Origin: Chloroflexota bacterium
GTDB taxonomy: Bacteria; Chloroflexota; Dehalococcoidia; Dehalococcoidales; UBA2162
Reading direction: 5' to 3'
Length of the DNA stretch: 64,000 nt
NCBI GenBank assembly: GCA_016190825.1
Contig: JACPPV010000009.1
Location: 65,328 to 129,327 of the forward strand
This document shows positions 3,688-53,484 of this stretch, piece after piece. The position numbers and the translations under genes are program-made. The notes under the pieces were generated by a model, which did not search any database, had not been told where the DNA came from, and saw nothing but the letters and a program-made list of their open reading frames with translations. Numbering within the stretch: position 1 is the first letter of the stretch; every line of letters begins with the position of its first letter.

Positions 3688-3749
3688 CTGGCTTCCTCCT
3701 CCTTTTCACTCCTGGTATGTTCTTGTCTCGTGACTTCATTCATACAAAA

Positions 3750-4124
3750 TTACTCGCACCCCTGACAATATCCGGCGAACTCAAGATAATGCCGCCTGAC
3801 ACTGAAACCGGTATCTTTTGATACCTTCCCATCAAGTTCGCTATCAGCTGACAGGTGCACGTCCACAATTGCGCCGCACCGTTCACACCGGAAATGGCAA
3901 TGCTTGTCACCGTTTACCTCATACCGGCCCTGCATACCTATCTCCAGCCGCCGGATTTCACCGTCTCTTTCCAATACATTGAGGTTTCGGTAAATCGTGC
4001 CCAGGCTAATCCTGGGCATCTCCTGCCGCACCTGCTCATATATCCAGCCCGCATCAGGATGACTGCTTGTGTGCCTGATGGCATTCAGGATGGCTATTTT
4101 CTGTTTTGATTCCCTGGTCATCAT
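3750..4124 (-). CDS. Fur/Zur/PerR-family metalloregulator
   Basis: wHTH-like segment LGTIYRNLNVLERDGEIRR plus paired Cys motifs HCHFRCERCG and CQGC at the C-terminus. The track start at 4133 is TTG; ATG at 4124 or 4121 is more likely. No clear SD. Confidence 0.8.
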   Translation of the reverse strand: MMTRESKQKIAILNAIRHTSSHPDAGWIYEQVRQEMPRISLGTIYRNLNVLERDGEIRRLEIGMQGRYEVNGDKHCHFRCERCGAIVDVHLSADSELDGKVSKDTGFSVRRHYLEFAGYCQGCE

Positions 4125-5178: not shown

Positions 5179-5397
5179 CTAGGCAGGCGTTTTCCTCTTT
5201 TCGCTGCCATACCACTCTTTGCCGTACCAGTACCGCTCAGCGGTCTCGAGGTACTTCAGCCTGTCTGCCCGGCTGGCGATTTTCTGCCGCCAGCGGCCCA
5301 TCTCATCATCTTCCGGTTTGCCTTCTTCAAAAGTCGGCCCGAGCACTTCCACCTCGTCCCTCCCAGGTGCGCTTTTCTTTTCAAGTTGATACGTCAT
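5179..5397 (-). CDS. Small hypothetical protein (72 aa) inside the Wood-Ljungdahl cluster
   Basis: GGAGG lies 8 nt upstream of the ATG at 5397, directly after the folD stop. The track start at 5406 is a GTG overlapping that SD. The protein has an acidic N-terminus and a W/Y-rich C-terminus (RYWYGKEWYG). No family recognised. Confidence 0.45.
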   Translation of the reverse strand: MTYQLEKKSAPGRDEVEVLGPTFEEGKPEDDEMGRWRQKIASRADRLKYLETAERYWYGKEWYGSEKRKTPA

Positions 5398-5412: not shown

Positions 5413-6297
5413 CTAAACTAGTCCTGCCGCCTTCCTGGCCGACCAGACCGTGGTCGCCAGTAACATCGTAATCAACATCGGCCCCACCCCACCGGGAACG
5501 GGCGTTATCGCCCCGGCCTTTTCTTTTACGGCGTCAAAATCAACATCCCCAACGGTCCTTCTCTTTTTGGTGACCGGGTCTTCTACAAAGTTTGAGCCAA
5601 AGTCCAGCACCACCACGCCCTCTCTTACCATATCGGTGGTGATGAACTTCGGCTTATTTACCGATACCACCAGGATATCCGCCCGGCGGGTATAGGCAGC
5701 AAGATCGGGGGTAGAAGGGTGGACCAGGGTAACGTTTGCCATTGCCTTCTCCTTATCCTGTGCCAGGATGGAGGCGAGTGGCTTGCCGACAAGGTTATCC
5801 ACATTCACGATAACCACGTCCTTGTACTTGACGTCATATCCTCCCCTGATGAGGATCTCATGCATGGCGATTGCCACCGCCGGCACGAAGGCGGACTGTC
5901 CCAGCCATGATTTGCCCACATTTACCGCCTGAAAGCCGTCAACATCTTTGTCCGGGGAAACGGCCGCCAGGGCTTTCTCCTCCGAAAGGTGCTTGGGCAA
6001 GGGAAGCTGGACAAAAATACCGTGCACCTTCGGGTCGCCATTCAGCCTTTCTATGTTGCTCAGAAGCTCCTGTTCCGTGACGGTGTCGGGCAAGCGGCAC
6101 ATCAATTCGGCTACGCCAACTTCCTCGCATGCTTTTGCCTTCAGACCAACATAGGTGACTGAGCCCGGGTCCTCACCCACGAGCACCCCGGCGAGGCCAG
6201 GGGTGATTCCCCGCTCTTTGAGGCGGTCCACTTCGCCCTTAAGGTCTTCCCTTATTTGAGCGGATATTGCTCTTCCATCCAGAATTTTGGCTGGCAT
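5413..6297 (-). CDS. folD: FolD-family paralog A. Lys motif retained; dinucleotide-binding and CTPxG motifs degenerate
   Basis: 294 aa. YVGLKAKACEEVG matches E. coli YVASKRKACEEVG. GxSxxxG is replaced by NVDNLVG, PCTPxG by PAVAIA, and GKP by NKP. ITPVPGGVGPM is retained. Confidence 0.85.
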   Translation of the reverse strand: MPAKILDGRAISAQIREDLKGEVDRLKERGITPGLAGVLVGEDPGSVTYVGLKAKACEEVGVAELMCRLPDTVTEQELLSNIERLNGDPKVHGIFVQLPLPKHLSEEKALAAVSPDKDVDGFQAVNVGKSWLGQSAFVPAVAIAMHEILIRGGYDVKYKDVVIVNVDNLVGKPLASILAQDKEKAMANVTLVHPSTPDLAAYTRRADILVVSVNKPKFITTDMVREGVVVLDFGSNFVEDPVTKKRRTVGDVDFDAVKEKAGAITPVPGGVGPMLITMLLATTVWSARKAAGLV

Positions 6298-6325
6298 ATT
6301 ATCGATCTCCTAAATCTCTTCGTTG

Positions 6326-7204
6326 TTATCCGGCCAGCTTCTCGGCAGCTTTGACGGTATTCACCATCAGCATGACCGATGTCACCGCGCCTGTCCCCCC
6401 GGGAACGGGCGTTATCGCGCCGGCCACCTCTTTCACCGCTTCGAAATCGACATCCCCCACCTGCTTATTCTTTCCAGTGACCGGGTCCGGAATGAAATTC
6501 ACCCCAACATCAATTACCACGGTGCCCTCTCTTACCATGTCAGCGGTGATTGCTTTAGCTCTGCCCATTGCGGCCACCAGGATATCAGCCTGCCGGGTAA
6601 ATGCGCTCAGATTCTTCGTCCCAGTATGGCATACGGTCACCGTGGCATTGGCTCCCTTTTGCTTCTGGACAAATATCCCCACTAACGGCTTACCAACTAT
6701 ATTGCTGCGACCTACGATGACCACGTGTTTCCCATTCGGGTCATGCCCGCTCCGCATCAGCAGCTCCTGGACCCCGTATGGCGTGGAGGGGAAAAACGTA
6801 TCCTCCCCGAGCAGTAGCTTGCCGGTGCTTATCGGGTTAGTCCCGTCCACGTCCTTATCGGGGGAGATGGCGCTTTCCGCTTCAAGAGCATTAAGCTGCC
6901 CGGGCAACGGCAGGAAAAGCAGGATGCCGTGCACTTTGCTATCCCGATTCAACTCGTCTATTTTCGTCAAAAGCTCCTGCTGCGTAATGGTGGCTGGAAG
7001 CCTCGCGCTCTCGGTAAGCACGCCAACTTCCCCGCAGGTCCGGGTGATTCCCCGGAGATAGGAAATGGAAGCCGGGTCCTCACCCACCAGAATCGTCACC
7101 AGTTTTGGACTTACTCCCTTTTCCTGCAAATGGTTTATTCTCTGCTTGAGGTCAGCTTGAATGTCAGCTGCAATCTTTCTTCCATCAATTATTTCTGCGG
7201 GCAT
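6326..7204 (-). CDS. folD: FolD-family paralog B. Rossmann and CTPxG motifs retained; Lys motif lost
   Basis: 292 aa. VVIVGRSNIVGKPL, TVCHTGT, ADILVAAMGRAKAI and PSTPYG are canonical. The Lys-motif position reads YLRGITRTCGEVG, with Ile where the catalytic Lys aligns. Confidence 0.85.
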   Translation of the reverse strand: MPAEIIDGRKIAADIQADLKQRINHLQEKGVSPKLVTILVGEDPASISYLRGITRTCGEVGVLTESARLPATITQQELLTKIDELNRDSKVHGILLFLPLPGQLNALEAESAISPDKDVDGTNPISTGKLLLGEDTFFPSTPYGVQELLMRSGHDPNGKHVVIVGRSNIVGKPLVGIFVQKQKGANATVTVCHTGTKNLSAFTRQADILVAAMGRAKAITADMVREGTVVIDVGVNFIPDPVTGKNKQVGDVDFEAVKEVAGAITPVPGGTGAVTSVMLMVNTVKAAEKLAG

Positions 7205-7243
7205 TTTCGCCTCCCGATAGTATTGGCTGTATTTCCTGATTCT

Positions 7244-8017
7244 TTAGCTTTTCCCTGGTACAGACTGCAAGACCATTTCCATCAGCTTATCAACCGCCGA
7301 TACCGCCCTGGAGGTGTCCGGCAGTTCGAGCAGCGGCCTCGCTTCGAGGTCATACTGGTATATCAGGTCGTCCTGGGGAACAATCACGTCCGGGTTTAGC
7401 TCCAGCTTTGCCATCTCTTCAACAATTGGCGGAGCCAGTTCATCCGGGACCATGTTGATGATGACGAATTGCCTTTTTACGATTAGTCCCAGCTCTGATA
7501 CCAGCTCCTTGATTCTTGCCAACGTCCGCACACCCTTCACGGAGTGATTGGAGACCAGAAGTAGCGCATCGATATTCTGCGTTGTCCTGCGGCTCAGGTG
7601 CTCCATCCCCGCCTCGTTGTCCATAACCACGTAGGCGTAGTTTCCCGCCAGCGAGTCCGCCGTTTTTCTCAGGACAACGTTCGGGTAGCAATAGCACTCG
7701 GGACCTTCACCCCGGCCCATGGTCAGCAGGTCGATACTTGGGCTTTCAATGATAGCTTCATTAAGCCGATATTGAAGATAAGCCTCCTTGGTCATGCCGG
7801 GAGGAATGCCAATCTTCACCTCATTAAAAGAAGCAATTATCGCGCCAACGGTCTCCTTGACCGTTAGCCCCAGGCTATCCCCCAGGTTGGCATTGGCATC
7901 AGCGTCAACGGCTAGAATCGGGACCATGTTCCGGTTCTTCAGATAACGGATCACAATGCTTGTGACCGATGTCTTGCCGCTACCGCCCTTGCCGGCTACT
8001 GCTATCGAAAAAGTCAA
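7244..8017 (-). CDS. cooC: CODH/ACS nickel-insertion ATPase (CooC/AcsF family)
   Basis: P-loop GKGGSGKT at the N-terminus and a CxC motif (GPECYCYPN). TTG start with AAGGAGAGG upstream. Confidence 0.85.
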   Translation of the reverse strand: MTFSIAVAGKGGSGKTSVTSIVIRYLKNRNMVPILAVDADANANLGDSLGLTVKETVGAIIASFNEVKIGIPPGMTKEAYLQYRLNEAIIESPSIDLLTMGRGEGPECYCYPNVVLRKTADSLAGNYAYVVMDNEAGMEHLSRRTTQNIDALLLVSNHSVKGVRTLARIKELVSELGLIVKRQFVIINMVPDELAPPIVEEMAKLELNPDVIVPQDDLIYQYDLEARPLLELPDTSRAVSAVDKLMEMVLQSVPGKS

Positions 8018-48110: not shown

Positions 48111-48139
48111 TTGACAGGCTACACGGAAACGTGTATAAT
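48111..48139 (+). promoter_or_regulatory. Perfect-consensus sigma70 promoter TTGACA-17-TATAAT at the left edge of the pcrA-mutL islet
   Basis: TTGACA at 48111-48116, 17-nt spacer, TATAAT at 48134-48139. The spacer and flanks are duplicated upstream of mutL (49561-49591). Confidence 0.6.
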
Positions 48140-48249
48140 GAAGGAAAAGCTGATCATACTGGGAAGTGTAAAGCAGGATAGTTTATTAGAAATGCAAAAT
48201 GACCCCTGGCCGATGTTGGTTTAACCGTATTATTTAAGGAGTGCTGAAT

Positions 48250-48444
48250 ATGCAGATAAGTAAGATAAGTAATTGTAGTTGTGGGAGCACCGACTTTCTC
48301 GTAATAACGGAAAAACTATATGAGGGATCTGTTGAGGATGGGGTGTTGAAGTGCGAGCCGGATAGCGAAGGTATCATGGAGATCCAATGTAGACAATGCC
48401 AAAAACAATATGATGTTAGCTCGTTTGAAGACATAGATTATTGA
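48250..48444 (+). CDS. Small Zn-ribbon-like protein (64 aa)
   Basis: AAGGAG (48236-48241) lies 8 nt upstream of the ATG at 48250; the track GTG at 48241 abuts the SD. Cys pattern: CSCG ... C ... CRQC. Confidence 0.5.
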   Translation: MQISKISNCSCGSTDFLVITEKLYEGSVEDGVLKCEPDSEGIMEIQCRQCQKQYDVSSFEDIDY

Positions 48445-49061
48445 CACTGGAATTAGAAATGAGCGTGAAAACAGACAATGATGTCCTCACAGAGATAACA
48501 AAGTTCTTTGAGCAGATTTTTGTATTAAAAAGAAAAGGTAATGAATATGCTTATGCAGATTACAAAGTTGAATGGCTGGAGCAACTGGGTTTGTCCGCTT
48601 CTGATGGGGATGAATCCAAAACATCACGGACCACAAAGAAATTACAGGAACACCTGAAAAACAAGTTTGGTGAGAGATTGAGTGTAGAAGCGCCTGTTGC
48701 AAAGGGAATGACTCTAAGATTTGCATCTGATAAGCTGAATGCTATAGAACGTATTGATATTGACTCGAATAAGTTGCAGGCTTTTGACATTTTAGATATT
48801 GAAACGGGGACAGCGTTTGAAGTCAGTCTGTCAGATGCCTTCGCTGAATTCTTCAAAGATGTTCTGAAGTCTTTATTGGATTCGCGAGTCAAGACACTCT
48901 ATATTTGTATGAGAAACCACAGTTACAAAGGTTCCAAAAAGAGCGGCTATTTAAAGCTAAGAGACTCGCCGATGGTTCAACAGTATATAAGTCTCGCAAA
49001 GCTTTATAAACTGGACATATATTTGGTCGATTTATTTCCTAAATGTAATGAGACATTGTAA
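48441..49061 (+). CDS. Hypothetical protein, possibly BamHI/BglII-like restriction-endonuclease fold (weak)
   Basis: TTGA start/stop overlap with the upstream gene. FDILDIETGTAFEVSLSDAFAEFFKDVLKSLL...LYICM...LDIYLVDL loosely parallels [27 protein letters not shown]...VEIVP...IPVLILGI of the BglII-like enzyme at 52359. Confidence 0.4.
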   Translation: MTLELEMSVKTDNDVLTEITKFFEQIFVLKRKGNEYAYADYKVEWLEQLGLSASDGDESKTSRTTKKLQEHLKNKFGERLSVEAPVAKGMTLRFASDKLNAIERIDIDSNKLQAFDILDIETGTAFEVSLSDAFAEFFKDVLKSLLDSRVKTLYICMRNHSYKGSKKSGYLKLRDSPMVQQYISLAKLYKLDIYLVDLFPKCNETL

Positions 49062-49084
49062 ATTTCTTGGTAGGTCGATAATTG

Positions 49085-49515
49085 GATGGGTTCCCTAAAT
49101 TCGACAAGTTGTTAAGAGCGGCCTAAAATCCGTAGGCTATCAAGCAGAGACACCGAAAACGATAACAGGAAAAAGCAAAGCGACCGGTTATCCGGATATA
49201 GAATTCATCGACGAATTTGGGCGTTCAAATTACCTTGAGTGCAAGACCTACAATATAGAAAATATTTCTACTACGATGAGGTCATTCTATTTATCGCCTT
49301 CTGAAGAGTTCAAGATTACCAAAGACGCGCACCACATCGTAGTCTCTTTTGAGGCATTCGTTGCTGGTAATAAGAGAGGGAAATACATCTTCAAATGTAG
49401 AAGCTGGAAAATAATTTCCCTGGAGAAACTCCTGGTTGACGTTAAATACGAGTTTAATTCGGATAATAAGAGGCTATATTCACCTGATTTGGTATTGGCT
49501 GAAGGGAAATTGTGA
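49085..49515 (+). pseudogene. PD-(D/E)xK nuclease-like ORF lacking an in-frame canonical start (frameshifted or non-canonical initiation)
   Basis: The frame is open from 49099 to 49515 and encodes ...KATGYPDIEFIDEFGRSNYLECKTYN... (PD at 49192-49197, ExK at 49237-49245). The first in-frame ATG/GTG/TTG is only at 49276, downstream of the motif. An ATG at 49085 lies in a different frame and stops at 49112-49114. Confidence 0.5.
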
Positions 49516-49560
49516 CAGCGCAGTTTCCCTACAACAAGAGGTGATCAGTCAAATAGCCCG

Positions 49561-49589
49561 TTGATAAACCATACGGAAACGTGTTTATT
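49561..49589 (+). promoter_or_regulatory. Degenerate promoter copy TTGATA-17-TTTATT immediately upstream of mutL
   Basis: 24/31 identical to 48111-48141, with a 12-nt perfect core ACGGAAACGTGT. The -10 ends 8 nt before the mutL ATG and there is no SD. Confidence 0.45.
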
Positions 49590-49597
49590 GAGATAAC

Positions 49598-51304
49598 ATG
49601 CCCATCAAACTCTTAGACCCCCAGGTAGTTGCCCGGATAGCCGCCGGGGAGGTGGTGGAGAGGCCGGCCTCGGTGGTGAAGGAGCTGGTGGAGAACGCCC
49701 TGGATGCCGGCGCCACTCAGGTCACGGTGGAGGCGGCAGGCGGTGGGATAAGCCTTATCCGGGTGACGGATAACGGGGTCGGGATTCCCGCCAACGAAGT
49801 CGAGCTTGCCTTTCAACGCCACGCCACCAGCAAGATTGCCAGCCTGGTTGATTTAGAATCGATTTCCACCCTGGGCTTTCGCGGTGAGGCGCTGGCCAGC
49901 CTTATCGCCGTGGGCGAGGTGGAGCTTGCCACCTGCGCCGCTGGCGAGACCGCCGGCAGCTATCTCCACCTGGTAGATGGCGAAATAGTCGACCGCACCC
50001 CGCAGGGACGGAGCCGGGGGACGACCATCACGGTGAGAGGCCTGTTCCACAACGTTCCCGCGCGACTTAAGTTCTTGAAGTCGACTGCCACCGAAGGCGG
50101 GCACATCGCTGCCGTGGTCACGCACTATGCCCTCGCCTATCCGGAGGTGAGGTTTACCCTTTCCGTTGATCGGCGGACGACATTGTCTACGCCGGGAAAC
50201 GGACGGCTTATCGACTGCGTGGTGGAGGTCTACGGCGCGGACACGGCACGGGGCATGATCGAGCTCAGGCGGGATAATAGCTGGGACGGAGCCGGGCAGG
50301 ATACCGTCGCCGTCACCGGACTGGTTGGGTCGCCGGCCGTCAGCCGCTCGAACCGCAACTACCTCAGCTGTTTTGTTAACCGGCGCTGGGTGAACAGTCG
50401 ACTTCTTACCTGGGCGCTGGAGGAAGCCTATCATGGGCTGTTGATGACCGGCAAACACCCGGCGGCGGTCCTGAACATTTCAATCCCGCCCGGGGAGGTC
50501 GATGTCAATATCCATCCGGCCAAGATGGAGGTAAAGTTCCGCGATGAACGCCGCGTTTTCGCCGCGGTGCAGAGGTTGGTGCGGCGCGCCCTCATTGAAC
50601 CGGTTTCTCTGCCCCGCATCGAGGACCCCGCCGCCACCTATGCCGCACCGACTTCATCCCTCTCTACCCGGCCATTGCCTGCAGAAAAGGTGGAGCGACC
50701 TTCCGGCCTGCCACTTGCGCGTCCCGTTCCCGCTTTCGCACTGCCGGCATTGCGACCCCTCGGGCAGGTGGCTGGCTGCTACATCGTGGCCGAGGGACCG
50801 GACGGACTGTACCTCATCGATCAGCATGCCGCCCATGAGCGGGTGCTTTTCGAGCAGATCGTTGGGCAGCGGGCGCAACGCCAGTTGGAAGTGCAGGGAC
50901 TGCTTGAGCCGCAGACATTCGAGGTCAGCCCGGCACAGAATGCCGCGCTTCTTTCCCGGCTCGACGAACTGGCCGGATTTGGATTTACCCTGGAGCCTTT
51001 CGGTGAGCGCGCCTACCTGGTGAGGGCGGTCCCTGCGTTTCTCAACCGGAAGGACTGGATGGCTGTGCTACGGGAAATAGCCGATTCCCCCGGTGGCGGA
51101 GAAGACTGGTCGGAGAGGACGACCGCGTCCATTGCCTGCCACAGCGCCGTTCGGGCGGGGCAGACATTGGGTGACGACGAGATGCGGGCGCTGCTGAGAC
51201 AACTAGAGCAGACGGCGCTGCCCAGCACCTGCCCGCACGGTCGACCCACCATGCTCCATCTCAACTCCGCTTATCTGGAGCGGGAGTTCGGCCGGAGGGG
51301 GTAA
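49598..51304 (+). CDS. mutL: DNA mismatch repair protein MutL (endonuclease-type)
   Basis: N-terminal GHKL ATPase (VVKELVENALDAG, TDNGVGI) and the C-terminal endonuclease motif DQHAAHERVLFE. Confidence 0.95.
   Translation: MPIKLLDPQVVARIAAGEVVERPASVVKELVENALDAGATQVTVEAAGGGISLIRVTDNGVGIPANEVELAFQRHATSKIASLVDLESISTLGFRGEALASLIAVGEVELATCAAGETAGSYLHLVDGEIVDRTPQGRSRGTTITVRGLFHNVPARLKFLKSTATEGGHIAAVVTHYALAYPEVRFTLSVDRRTTLSTPGNGRLIDCVVEVYGADTARGMIELRRDNSWDGAGQDTVAVTGLVGSPAVSRSNRNYLSCFVNRRWVNSRLLTWALEEAYHGLLMTGKHPAAVLNISIPPGEVDVNIHPAKMEVKFRDERRVFAAVQRLVRRALIEPVSLPRIEDPAATYAAPTSSLSTRPLPAEKVERPSGLPLARPVPAFALPALRPLGQVAGCYIVAEGPDGLYLIDQHAAHERVLFEQIVGQRAQRQLEVQGLLEPQTFEVSPAQNAALLSRLDELAGFGFTLEPFGERAYLVRAVPAFLNRKDWMAVLREIADSPGGGEDWSERTTASIACHSAVRAGQTLGDDEMRALLRQLEQTALPSTCPHGRPTMLHLNSAYLEREFGRRG
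51265..51304 (+). repeat. Left copy of a perfect 40-bp direct repeat (last 13 codons of mutL, including the stop)
   Basis: ctccgcttatctggagcgggagttcggccggagggggtaa, identical to 52930-52969. Confidence 0.95.
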
Positions 51305-51372
51305 AAACTCGTGTGTTTGAAGTTGACTATCTGTTTGTGGCAAGAGTCTAAGTGTATAATTGAGAGAACGGC

Positions 51373-52359
51373 TTGAGTATGACGTCAGATTCGCAGCGAG
51401 AAAAAGTTTTGACATCTCCGGATTTTATGCCCAGAATCGACGCTGAGTATATACAAGCTTCATCTATCATCGCGCATGTTGGCGATACGCTACCTTTCCT
51501 ACAGACCATCCCGACAGGTTTGTTTCGCCTCATTATGACGTCTCCCCCTTATAATCTCGGAAAGGCGTATGAAAAACCCAAAGCACTGAGCGAATATCTT
51601 GAGGAACAGGGAAACGTAATCCAAGAGCTCATCCGATGTCTTGCCGACGATGGTAGCCTTTGTTGGCAGGTAGGAAACTTCGTTCAGGATGGCGAAGTCT
51701 TTCCTCTCGACACCTTGTTCTATCCCATATTCAAACGAAATGGTTTGAAGTTGCGCAATCGGATTATCTGGCAGTTTGGACATGGACTCCACGCATCTCG
51801 CCGTTTCTCAGGAAGATATGAGACTTTGCTCTGGTTCACGAAATCAAACAATTATGTCTTCAATCTCGATAAAGTGCGGGTTCCCGCAAAGTATCCCGGA
51901 AAAACATTTTACAAAGGACCTAACAAGGGTAAGCCTTCTGGAAACCCTTTGGGAAAGAATCCCTCTGATGTTTGGACGTTTCTAGCTGAGGAATGGGAGA
52001 ATCAAGTCTGGGAGATTCCCAATGTTAAATCTAATCACCCTGAGAAGACCATACATCCCTGCCAGTTTCCGGTGGAACTTGTTGAGCGCTGCGTTCTGGC
52101 TCTGACGAATGAGAACGACTGGGTATTCGATCCATATATGGGAGTTGGTTCCGCGTTGATCGGTGGGCTTTTGCACGACCGGAAGGTCGCTGGCTGCGAC
52201 AGGGAACACCTGTATGTCGAAATCGCCAGGAATCGGATTAGAGATCTTTTCCTGGGTCGTCTCAAAGTGAGAAAAATGGGGACACCGATATACGTTCCAA
52301 CCGGGCGAGAGAGAGTATCCCAGATTCCCATCGAGTGGCCAAAAGGAGAAGCACAATAG
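51373..52359 (+). CDS. Beta-class N4-cytosine/N6-adenine DNA methyltransferase (M.BglII-like)
   Basis: Motif IV SPPY (51541-51552) precedes motif I VFDPYMGVGSA near the C-terminus, giving the beta-class order. The start is either TTG at 51373 or ATG at 51379. Confidence 0.88.
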   Translation: MSMTSDSQREKVLTSPDFMPRIDAEYIQASSIIAHVGDTLPFLQTIPTGLFRLIMTSPPYNLGKAYEKPKALSEYLEEQGNVIQELIRCLADDGSLCWQVGNFVQDGEVFPLDTLFYPIFKRNGLKLRNRIIWQFGHGLHASRRFSGRYETLLWFTKSNNYVFNLDKVRVPAKYPGKTFYKGPNKGKPSGNPLGKNPSDVWTFLAEEWENQVWEIPNVKSNHPEKTIHPCQFPVELVERCVLALTNENDWVFDPYMGVGSALIGGLLHDRKVAGCDREHLYVEIARNRIRDLFLGRLKVRKMGTPIYVPTGRERVSQIPIEWPKGEAQ

Positions 52360-52928
52360 TGAGAATAGTCGCCTCGTATTCGTTCAGGGGAGGAGAAAGA
52401 GCGGTCAAAAGGAAGCACAAGGATTCCCTTGCCGAGATTACGGCTGTAATCGAAGCGGTAAACTCCGATGAGCATAAGACGAAAGCCAGTAGAGAAAAAA
52501 CTATGCCTGGTAGAATACTGTATAGTCCAAGATCATTAAATGCCGCGTTCAAATCAGAGTTTGAAGCCGCTGGATGGCAGAAAAAGAAGGTGAATTGCGA
52601 ATATCCCACTCAGTTTTATGTTAAGGGATACACTCCCACGCATAACGCCAAAGGCGCCTTCCGTGAGATGGATTTCCTCAAGGGAAAGTTAGGGGTAGAG
52701 GTACAATTTGGTAAGTATGCATTCATGGTTTATAACGTTTGCGCCAAGATGACAATATTCCAGAAAATGGGCTTCATCGACACTGGCGTCGAAATAGTCC
52801 CGGTCAAGAGTTTCGCCGACCAGATGTCCACAGGAGTCTCGTATTTTGAGCAGTTTGTGTGGGATTTGGAAGCTCGTGGCGTTTCAAACATAGACATTCC
52901 TGTTCTTATCTTGGGTATCGACCGATGA
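52359..52928 (+). CDS. Type II restriction endonuclease, BglII family-like
   Basis: [20 protein letters not shown] has D, E(+9), Q(+11) spacing. That equals the D84/E93/Q95 spacing I recall for BglII (DIDFGKRDTLVEVQFSNYPF). GTG at 52359 overlaps the methylase TAG, with AAGGAG 10 nt upstream. The track start at 52335 is an alternative. Confidence 0.72.
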
Positions 52929-52929
52929 G

Positions 52930-52969
52930 CTCCGCTTATCTGGAGCGGGAGTTCGGCCGGAGGGGGTAA
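52930..52969 (+). repeat. Right copy of the perfect 40-bp direct repeat
   Basis: Identical to 51265-51304 and followed by gttccaagaag... leading into rnhA. Confidence 0.95.
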
Positions 52970-53001: not shown

Positions 53002-53484
53002 ATGACCCAAGTTAAACAGATTGCTATTCATGTCGATGGAGCCTGTACGGGCAATCCCGGGCCGGGCGGATACGGAGTCATTCTTGACTACCAGGGCTAC
53101 AGGAAAGAAATCTCCGGTGGCTTCAGAATGACTACCAATAACCGTATGGAAGTTATGGGAGTCGTCGTTGCCCTGGAGTCGCTGAAGGGGCCGTGCGAAA
53201 CGACCATTTACAGTGACTCACAGTATCTAGTCCGCGCAATGACGGAAGGCTGGGCCAGGCGGTGGAAAGCGAATAACTGGAGGCGCAACAAAAAGGACAA
53301 AGTATTGAATCCCGACCTATGGGACCGATTGCTCAACCTCTGCGATCGGCATCGGACCAGTTTCATCTGGGTGAAAGGACATAACGCGAACCCGGAAAAT
53401 GAGCGGTGTGACCAGCTTGCCACTGAAGCTGCCGGAAAGCACAATCTTCCCGCGGACCCGGGCTATGAGAGCATCAGGGCTTAG
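53002..53484 (+). CDS. rnhA: Ribonuclease HI
   Basis: [30 protein letters not shown] and [18 protein letters not shown] motifs. Confidence 0.95.

Follow-up and report, generated by a model that had tools for sequence, protein, structure and literature searches.

A 64,000-nucleotide stretch of the metagenome-assembled contig JACPPV010000009.1 (GenBank assembly GCA_016190825.1, Chloroflexota bacterium, order Dehalococcoidales; contig positions 65,328 to 129,327), referred to below as the window, carries a compact two-gene cassette between the mismatch repair gene mutL and the RNase H gene rnhA. The cassette is predicted to encode a type II restriction-modification (R-M) system and is flanked by a 40-bp direct repeat, and all features of the locus lie on the forward strand. 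The mutL gene (49598-51304) was intact with its native stop codon, and its 568-amino-acid product had the usual four Pfam domains, including matches to MutL_C, DNA_mis_repair and HATPase_c_3, and was 100% identical to MBI2851830.1 from an NCBI "Chloroflexi bacterium" metagenome-assembled genome (MAG). The left copy of the repeat (51265-51304) consisted of the final 13 mutL codons and the TAA stop and was followed by a non-coding leader of 74 nt (51305-51378), a methyltransferase gene, M (51379-52359), a restriction endonuclease gene, R (52359-52928), and, after a gap of 1 nt, the right copy (52930-52969), which is non-coding at this position. The rnhA gene (53002-53484; PF00075, E 5e-41), the downstream partner of the interrupted mutL-rnhA pair, started 32 nt past the right repeat.

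The two copies of the repeat, CTCCGCTTATCTGGAGCGGGAGTTCGGCCGGAGGGGGTAA, were identical at 40 of 40 positions with a spacing of 1665 nt. No third copy was found in the window with up to 3 mismatches allowed, 100 dinucleotide-preserving shuffles gave no match to the 40-mer, and the pair was the sole perfect long direct repeat of the window. An earlier note on this DNA, made from the sequence alone, had described the perfect repeat and its period, the location of the cassette exactly after the mutL stop and a nuclease stop codon 1 nt from the right copy, and all three were reproduced, with the R stop codon (TGA) ending at 52928. Two real open reading frames (ORFs) only, M and R, were found in the 1625 bp between the copies. 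The GC content fell to 0.44-0.49 between the two copies, as compared with 0.63-0.66 in mutL, the GC content at third codon positions (GC3) was 0.50-0.52 in the cassette vs 0.74-0.77 in uvrD and mutL, and both breaks coincided exactly with the inner edges of the repeats. Folding of the 40-bp repeat was no better than that of shuffled sequences (z -0.67).

The M gene encodes a protein of 326 amino acids assigned to the beta-class N6/N4 amino-methyltransferases (PF01555, E 7e-47, covering residues 52-286; PADLOC MTase_II, E 3e-69). The SPPY motif (motif IV) preceded FDPYMGVGS (motif I), which is the order of the beta class and bears out the class given to this gene in the earlier note. The nearest solved structures were those of M.RsrI and M.MboIIA, with both N6-methyladenine and N4-methylcytosine enzymes included among the solved relatives. 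The ATG start of M aligned with the M start of a related cassette (locus L165; loci fetched for comparison are cited by number where they need to be told apart).

The R gene is predicted to encode a type IIP restriction endonuclease of the BstYI/BglII family with 189 amino acids, a length that matches nearly all homologues. The protein matched PF09195, Endonuc-BglII (E 1e-19; 70.9 bits, the cut-off being 26), and PADLOC REase_II (E 2.5e-33), so that of the two families for which a profile search had been proposed, Endonuc-BglII and the N6/N4 methyltransferases, both were matched. A phmmer comparison with solved structures aligned R with BstYI (1sdo) over the full length at E 6e-31 and with BglII at E 2e-3 only. 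The residues D, E(+9) and Q(+11) corresponded to D119/E128/Q130 of BstYI and to the BglII triad, as the spacing noticed earlier had indicated, and K133 of BstYI was also conserved. The description of the system as "BglII-like" therefore holds at the family level through PF09195, while the nuclease is predicted to be BstYI-like specifically. R^GATCY, or else a closely similar hexamer with a GATC core, is the probable recognition site. BstYI (R^GATCY; PDB 1sdo, 1vrr, 2p0j) shares the four residues named above and is similar in size (203 amino acids); it differs from R in a segment of about 14 residues between the two aligned blocks, and the overall identity is moderate only. BglII (AGATCT; PDB 1d2i, 1dfm) shares the Pfam family and the active site spacing but is distant in sequence, and the cassette differs from the BglII system in having no controller (C) protein gene, an M-then-R gene order and an overlap of stop and start codons.

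The R start is most likely a GTG at 52359, which is preceded by AAGGAG at 52343-52348 and overlaps the M stop as TAGTG. A GTG further upstream (52335) was rejected as the start based on the ribosome binding sequence, the overlap and the homologue-like length obtained with the GTG at 52359. The R protein corresponds to MBI2851832.1 at 188 of 189 residues, the sole difference being the translation of the GTG start codon. With M first and R read from a weak GTG behind a strong AAGGAG, the overlap of the R start with the M stop would couple translation of the two genes, and protection should therefore precede cleavage. A TATAAT box, which the earlier note had placed between the repeats, is present in the leader (51355-51360); no -35 hexamer was found at 16-18 nt from it, so no canonical promoter was called for the cassette. 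Transcription would probably occur by read-through from mutL, from a weak -10-only promoter, or both.

The mutL target was compared to its closest relatives. Apart from the identical protein, the next-best MutL matches in a search of 5.8 billion proteins were 71-72% identical. Synteny of uvrD and mutL was kept in two contexts (P0125 and P0122) while the downstream genes differed, and mutL-rnhA synteny was not kept in the relatives at 71-72% MutL identity. When metagenomes were scanned with the C-terminal domain of MutL, the best matches were 60-63% identical and had no rnhA downstream. Two loci at about 70% identity (L162 and L164) had uvrD, a spacer of 52 nt and mutL, and their MutL proteins ended in ...EFGRRG* or ...EFGRKG* as in the window. 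The relatives' MutL thus ends at the same codon and the cassette therefore directly follows the native mutL stop. A pre-insertion or excised state of the locus would have a single copy of the repeat and would read ...GGCCGGAGGGGGTAA joined directly to GTTCCAAGAAGACC.

Homologues of R numbered 6971 at 61-81% identity and were distributed across the Chloroflexota, Planctomycetota, Bacteroidota, Acidobacteriota, Verrucomicrobiota and other phyla. The M gene was located directly upstream of R in the same order in 81 of the 81 loci fetched, and the M-R pair is a widely transferred two-gene unit. A near-identical donor cassette was not found, the closest R (81%) being on a contig of 1.3 kb without the M side. 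The leaders of the window cassette and of L165 (73 nt) were barely alignable and similarity ended at the R stop codon, so conserved cassette termini were rejected.

For each locus, the left flank of M was compared with the right flank of R. Four further cassettes were tightly bracketed by direct repeats that were unrelated to each other and to the repeat in the window. A repeat of 190 bp (about 95% identical) was found in a member of the Bacteroidota (L019), one of 147 bp (about 91% identical) duplicated an intergenic region in a member of the Anaerolineales (L059), a perfect repeat of 48 bp spanned the stop codon of the upstream ORF in a member of the Anaerolineae (L050), and one of 38 bp spanned the ATG of the downstream gene in a second member of the Anaerolineales (L015). 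Weaker repeat candidates were present at L037, L073 and L038. As a control, the cassette frame was shifted by 2-4 kb within the same loci, giving 340 shifted frames for comparison with 69 real frames. Alignment scores of at least 30 were obtained for 3 of the 69 real frames and for 0 of the 340 shifted frames, and scores of at least 18 for 4/69 and 1/340, respectively (Fisher p=0.003). The repeat-bracketed inserts extended just 3-74 nt beyond M on the upstream side and 1-44 nt beyond R on the downstream side. Repeats at two other loci were derived from tRNA genes. Those at L068 (4614-4660 and 6919-6965) corresponded to the 3' end (about 42 nt) of tRNA-Cys and enclosed about 350 nt of extra DNA on each side, and those at L033 (947-960 and 2593-2606) were 14 nt long and lay in the T-arm of tRNA-Ser (883-971). 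No integrase was visible at either locus, and these repeats may represent integrase-type events or decayed islets.

Cassettes of this family were also found beside mutL elsewhere. In L165, L166 and L167, which have the closest cassette with usable context (R 79%, M 75% and MutL 68% identical), the cassette directly followed the mutL stop, with the junction at 1818-1892 in L165. The L034 cassette was immediately upstream of the mutL start (6603-6642), and in L032 (6570-7746) the cassette and a convergent mutL were separated by an ORF of 381 amino acids. Three of 84 other cassettes adjoined mutL vs a chance expectation that we estimate at about 0.1, based on approximately 3000 genes per genome. 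The cassette was absent from L162 and L164, which are about equally related to the window organism and to that of L165. Cassette GC3 was 0.41-0.60 in every host, far under the host values of 0.69-0.87, and independent gains are therefore likelier than ancient inheritance.

The features of the locus correspond to the "insertion with long target duplication" described for R-M systems (Nobusato et al. 2000, Gene 259:99; Furuta et al. 2010, NAR 38:2428, PMC2853133). The class was defined by R and M within the insert, an insert below 20 kb, a repeat above 30 bp and the lack of a mobility gene (PMC2853133). The insert in the window has both R and M, a length of 1625 bp, a 40-bp repeat and no mobility gene, in keeping with the resemblance drawn in the earlier note. 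The repeats in the published cases often span a start or stop codon, leaving the target gene intact, and some of the inserts were within operon-like structures (PMC2853133). Likewise, the repeat here is unique, derived from the target and spans the mutL stop codon, the target is intact, and the insert has a lower GC content than the host and is placed inside an operon-like gene pair. The published cases were mainly from Helicobacter, Haemophilus, Neisseria and Campylobacter, with further cases in Microcystis, Acidovorax, Burkholderia and Clavibacter (PMC2853133). The locus described here differs in that the host is an uncultured member of the Chloroflexota, a phylum outside that survey, and in that several homologues of one cassette family use the same mode at unrelated targets. 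We therefore read the locus as an intact, horizontally acquired type IIP R-M operon of predicted enzymes that was inserted with a long target duplication at the mutL-rnhA junction, and assign a probability of roughly 0.78 to the identity of the element and the class of the event taken together.

Other classes of mobile element did not account for the structure. A DNA transposon or insertion sequence did not fit, as no transposase was found in the cassette by a Pfam scan, none of the inverted repeats detected formed the termini of the cassette, and the direct repeats were 40 bp here and 38-190 bp in the homologues. An integron gene cassette, with an attC site downstream of its last ORF, did not fit, as there is a single nucleotide between the R stop and the target-derived repeat. 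An integrative element with its own integrase did not fit either, as a profile scan gave no recombinase gene between the repeats, although the other ORFs of the window were not all scanned for trans-acting enzymes, and the repeats of the homologues shared no core. The lack of a recombinase or transposase in the cassette is as had been noted earlier. Integrase-mediated genomic islets and cis-mobilisable elements at gene 3' ends or tRNA genes resemble the locus, as their direct repeats are likewise built from a conserved gene's 3' end and their foreign cargo frequently consists of R-M genes; unlike them, the cassette has no integrase within it or beside it, and the repeats of its copies are not conserved in sequence or length.

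As to how such a structure could arise, the cassette would have entered the mutL-rnhA junction in the orientation of the host genes and the last 40 bp of mutL would have ended up on either side of the 1625 bp inserted. With the 40-bp end duplicated in this way, the native C-terminus and stop codon of mutL are retained. Rather than by a recombinase, the ends of a compact incoming molecule may have been joined to the target 40 nt apart with the interval between them copied twice, and such a duplication would be expected from illegitimate end joining at a replication fork or at staggered breaks. As neither gene may be disrupted, the junctions would be confined to the roughly 30-100 nt that do not code. 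The small amount of non-coding cargo is consistent with a small circular or compact intermediate, and selection alone could have the same result. A circular intermediate would show a junction of ...ATCGACCGATGAG followed by the 40 bp and then AAACTCGTGTG. The variable length of the repeats (38-190 bp), their unrelated sequences and the lack of a recombinase argue against a transposase or a cassette-borne attachment (att) site. This specific pathway of insertion is put forward tentatively, at somewhat less than an even chance, and is rated above each of the alternatives considered below. In the published work, double-strand breakage was invoked solely as a property common to R-M types and not as a demonstrated mechanism (PMC2853133). 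We infer the direction and the age of the event. The perfect identity of the repeats had been taken earlier as a sign of a recent insertion; the unameliorated GC3 of the cassette agrees with this, but a long time may pass before any of 40 neutral sites changes. The identical repeats would permit later loss or amplification by repeat-mediated recombination, and the putative excisability of the cassette is plausible.

Several observations weigh against this interpretation. Approximately 90% of the homologous cassettes lacked a flanking repeat, and none was found in L001, L165, L169, L171, L034 or L032. The L165 cassette is of particular relevance, as there was no repeat in the 56 nt after R and yet the cassette occupies the same position after mutL, and therefore the post-mutL position and the formation of the repeat are separable. 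A conspecific genome or an empty site for the 40 bp was not found in the databases searched, where the next-best MutL was the 71-72% match given above, so the single-copy ancestral state of the 40 bp is inferred and not observed. S172 of BstYI is replaced by threonine in R. With respect to the insertion pathway, the authors of the published survey said of the cycle they proposed that its release and reinfection steps lacked experimental evidence (PMC2853133), and the insertion step of that hypothesis has no experimental support.

A Campbell-type event is an unlikely account of the structure. An excised circle from a conspecific, carrying the cassette and one copy of the 40 bp, would have been re-integrated at the 3' end of mutL by homologous recombination, and the repeat would reflect re-insertion within the species and not the original event. 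The product expected is identical, with a perfect repeat and with cassette ends within a short non-coding segment, and a cycle of excision, amplification and reinfection was proposed for repeat-flanked R-M units by Kobayashi's group. However, the first duplication would still require a de novo mechanism, and neither a circle junction nor a second genomic copy was visible in the window. A length of 40 bp is also very short for RecA-dependent recombination, which counts against such a route.

Recombination with DNA from a close relative that already carried mutL and the cassette was considered as a further route, in which the left end was joined by homology within mutL and the right end illegitimately at a point 40 bp upstream of the recipient mutL stop, giving a left copy derived from the donor and a right copy derived from the recipient. 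Such homology-facilitated illegitimate recombination would account for the repeated occurrence of related cassettes immediately behind mutL and for the right junction 1 nt past the R stop, and most of the published long-target-duplication cases are in naturally competent species. We nevertheless hold it to be decidedly improbable, as the donor mutL would have to be near-identical (40/40) and none is known, such a donor should give an ordinary two-sided homologous replacement, and the repeats at unrelated targets in other phyla would be left unexplained.

Little credence was given to the action of a recombinase in trans, by which the cassette would be a cis-mobilisable remnant with the 40-bp repeat as the att core and the conserved mutL 3' end as attB. 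The above-chance adjacency to mutL (L165, L034 and L032) and the tRNA-derived repeats at L068 and L033, which are of the type made by integrases, would fit such an enzyme. No recombinase is encoded between the repeats, though, and the repeats of the homologues are unrelated in sequence and very different in length (38-190 bp), so the cassette brings no att site of its own; moreover, L165 has no repeat at the same site and the placement of the cassette relative to mutL varies among loci.

An assembly artefact, in which the cassette of another organism was spliced into the MAG contig at a shared 40-mer, could be suspected from the metagenomic origin of the contig and from a cassette GC content unlike that of the host, but it is very unlikely and close to dismissible because the host's own mutL 40-mer would be needed at both ends of the foreign fragment and because assemblies made independently in other projects show the same architecture (L019, L050, L059 and L015), with the M-R pair also found behind mutL in three separate Logan contigs.

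A second low-GC island (48142-49560, GC 0.38-0.41) was located on the other side of mutL, between mutL and a uvrD/pcrA-like helicase gene, and was likewise bounded by a repeat, with both copies and the island on the forward strand. The left copy (48111-48141) is a TTGACA-N17-TATAAT promoter (12/12) with an ACACG-N4-CGTGT palindrome, and the right copy (49561-49591) is 24/31 identical and ends 6 nt ahead of the mutL ATG. The island contains a 67-amino-acid zinc-ribbon ORF (48241-48444), a 206-amino-acid ORF of no family (48441-49061) and the remnant of a 5'-truncated type II restriction endonuclease (49102-49515; PADLOC PDLC03511, positions 91-227 of 230, E 1e-24). The 206- and 67-amino-acid ORFs had no meaningful match in Pfam, NCBIfam or PADLOC and no homologue in the fetched loci, and no methyltransferase was found in the island. 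In L162 and L164, where uvrD and mutL are 52 nt apart, the spacer has one TTGACA-N17-TATGAT promoter, to which both 31-nt copies aligned. This spacer is the empty site of the second island. The island is older than the cassette. The palindrome, which lies between the -35 and -10 elements (48121-48134 and 49571-49584), was conserved in L162, L164 and L107 and folded significantly better than shuffled sequences (z -3.5 to -3.7), and it may be a putative operator for a regulator of mutL. Hairpin targeting as a general feature was rejected, as the repeats of the window cassette, L050 and L015 do not fold and the mutL promoter element alone does.

Unrelated type II methylases were found between uvrD and mutL in three metagenomic mutL relatives (L093, L102 and L107), and in L102 and L107 these were adjoined by ORFs of 238-239 amino acids. 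The low-GC cassette upstream of mutL in L107 consisted of a type II methyltransferase gene (481-1422) and the 238-amino-acid ORF on the opposite strand. It was flanked by a 34-nt repeat (33/34 identical; 400-433 and 2291-2324) that consists of a TTGACA-N17-TAAAAT element, the element that is duplicated in the window. At L104, an imperfect repeat of 47 nt (38/47; 3724-3770 and 5300-5346) lay across the mutL stop and bracketed a convergent 480-amino-acid gene with a GC content like that of the host. This may be an old insertion of a like kind with non-R-M cargo, or a repeated terminator region.

Use of GATC sites in the host was assessed in the window outside of the two islands. The observed/expected ratio of GATC was 0.47, RGATCY accounted for 12 of the 143 host GATC sites (8%) vs 19% expected (p=6e-4) while YGATCR accounted for 50, and AGATCT was the fourth lowest of the 64 hexamer palindromes. 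The depletion of RGATCY, on the basis of 64 kb only, is consistent with a long exposure of the lineage to an RGATCY specificity. Elsewhere in the window, repeat families spaced 907 nt apart (156 nt at 73% identity and blocks of 31-33 nt) were detected at 5488-7897 and look like tandem paralogous genes.

The movement of R-M systems without a transposase or integrase has been a question of mechanism since 2000, and the class of event seen at the mutL-rnhA junction is already known. The value added here is that the pattern recurs within one abundant cassette family, together with the pattern at the mutL flanks. The locus is a very clean example, with perfect repeats, a minimal insert of two genes and an intact target gene, and a large family with several independent repeat-flanked insertions allows the length of the repeats, the position of the junctions and the choice of target to be compared. 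The presence of different R-M cargos on both sides of mutL, with the same element duplicated at least twice, suggests either strong selection for gene-preserving insertions or a genuine hotspot at this mismatch repair gene. A broader proposal, which we regard as doubtful at present, is that the BstYI-like M-R pair is a discrete, self-contained mobile unit with at most about 100 nt of non-coding DNA, perhaps a small circle, that enters gene boundaries in many phyla with duplications of 38-190 bp, and that both mutL flanks are preferred in the Chloroflexota, also by unrelated R-M systems. If this were true, there would be a dedicated recombinase-independent insertion pathway tied to R-M function or to mismatch repair loci, and the abundance of the cassette family would make that pathway experimentally tractable.

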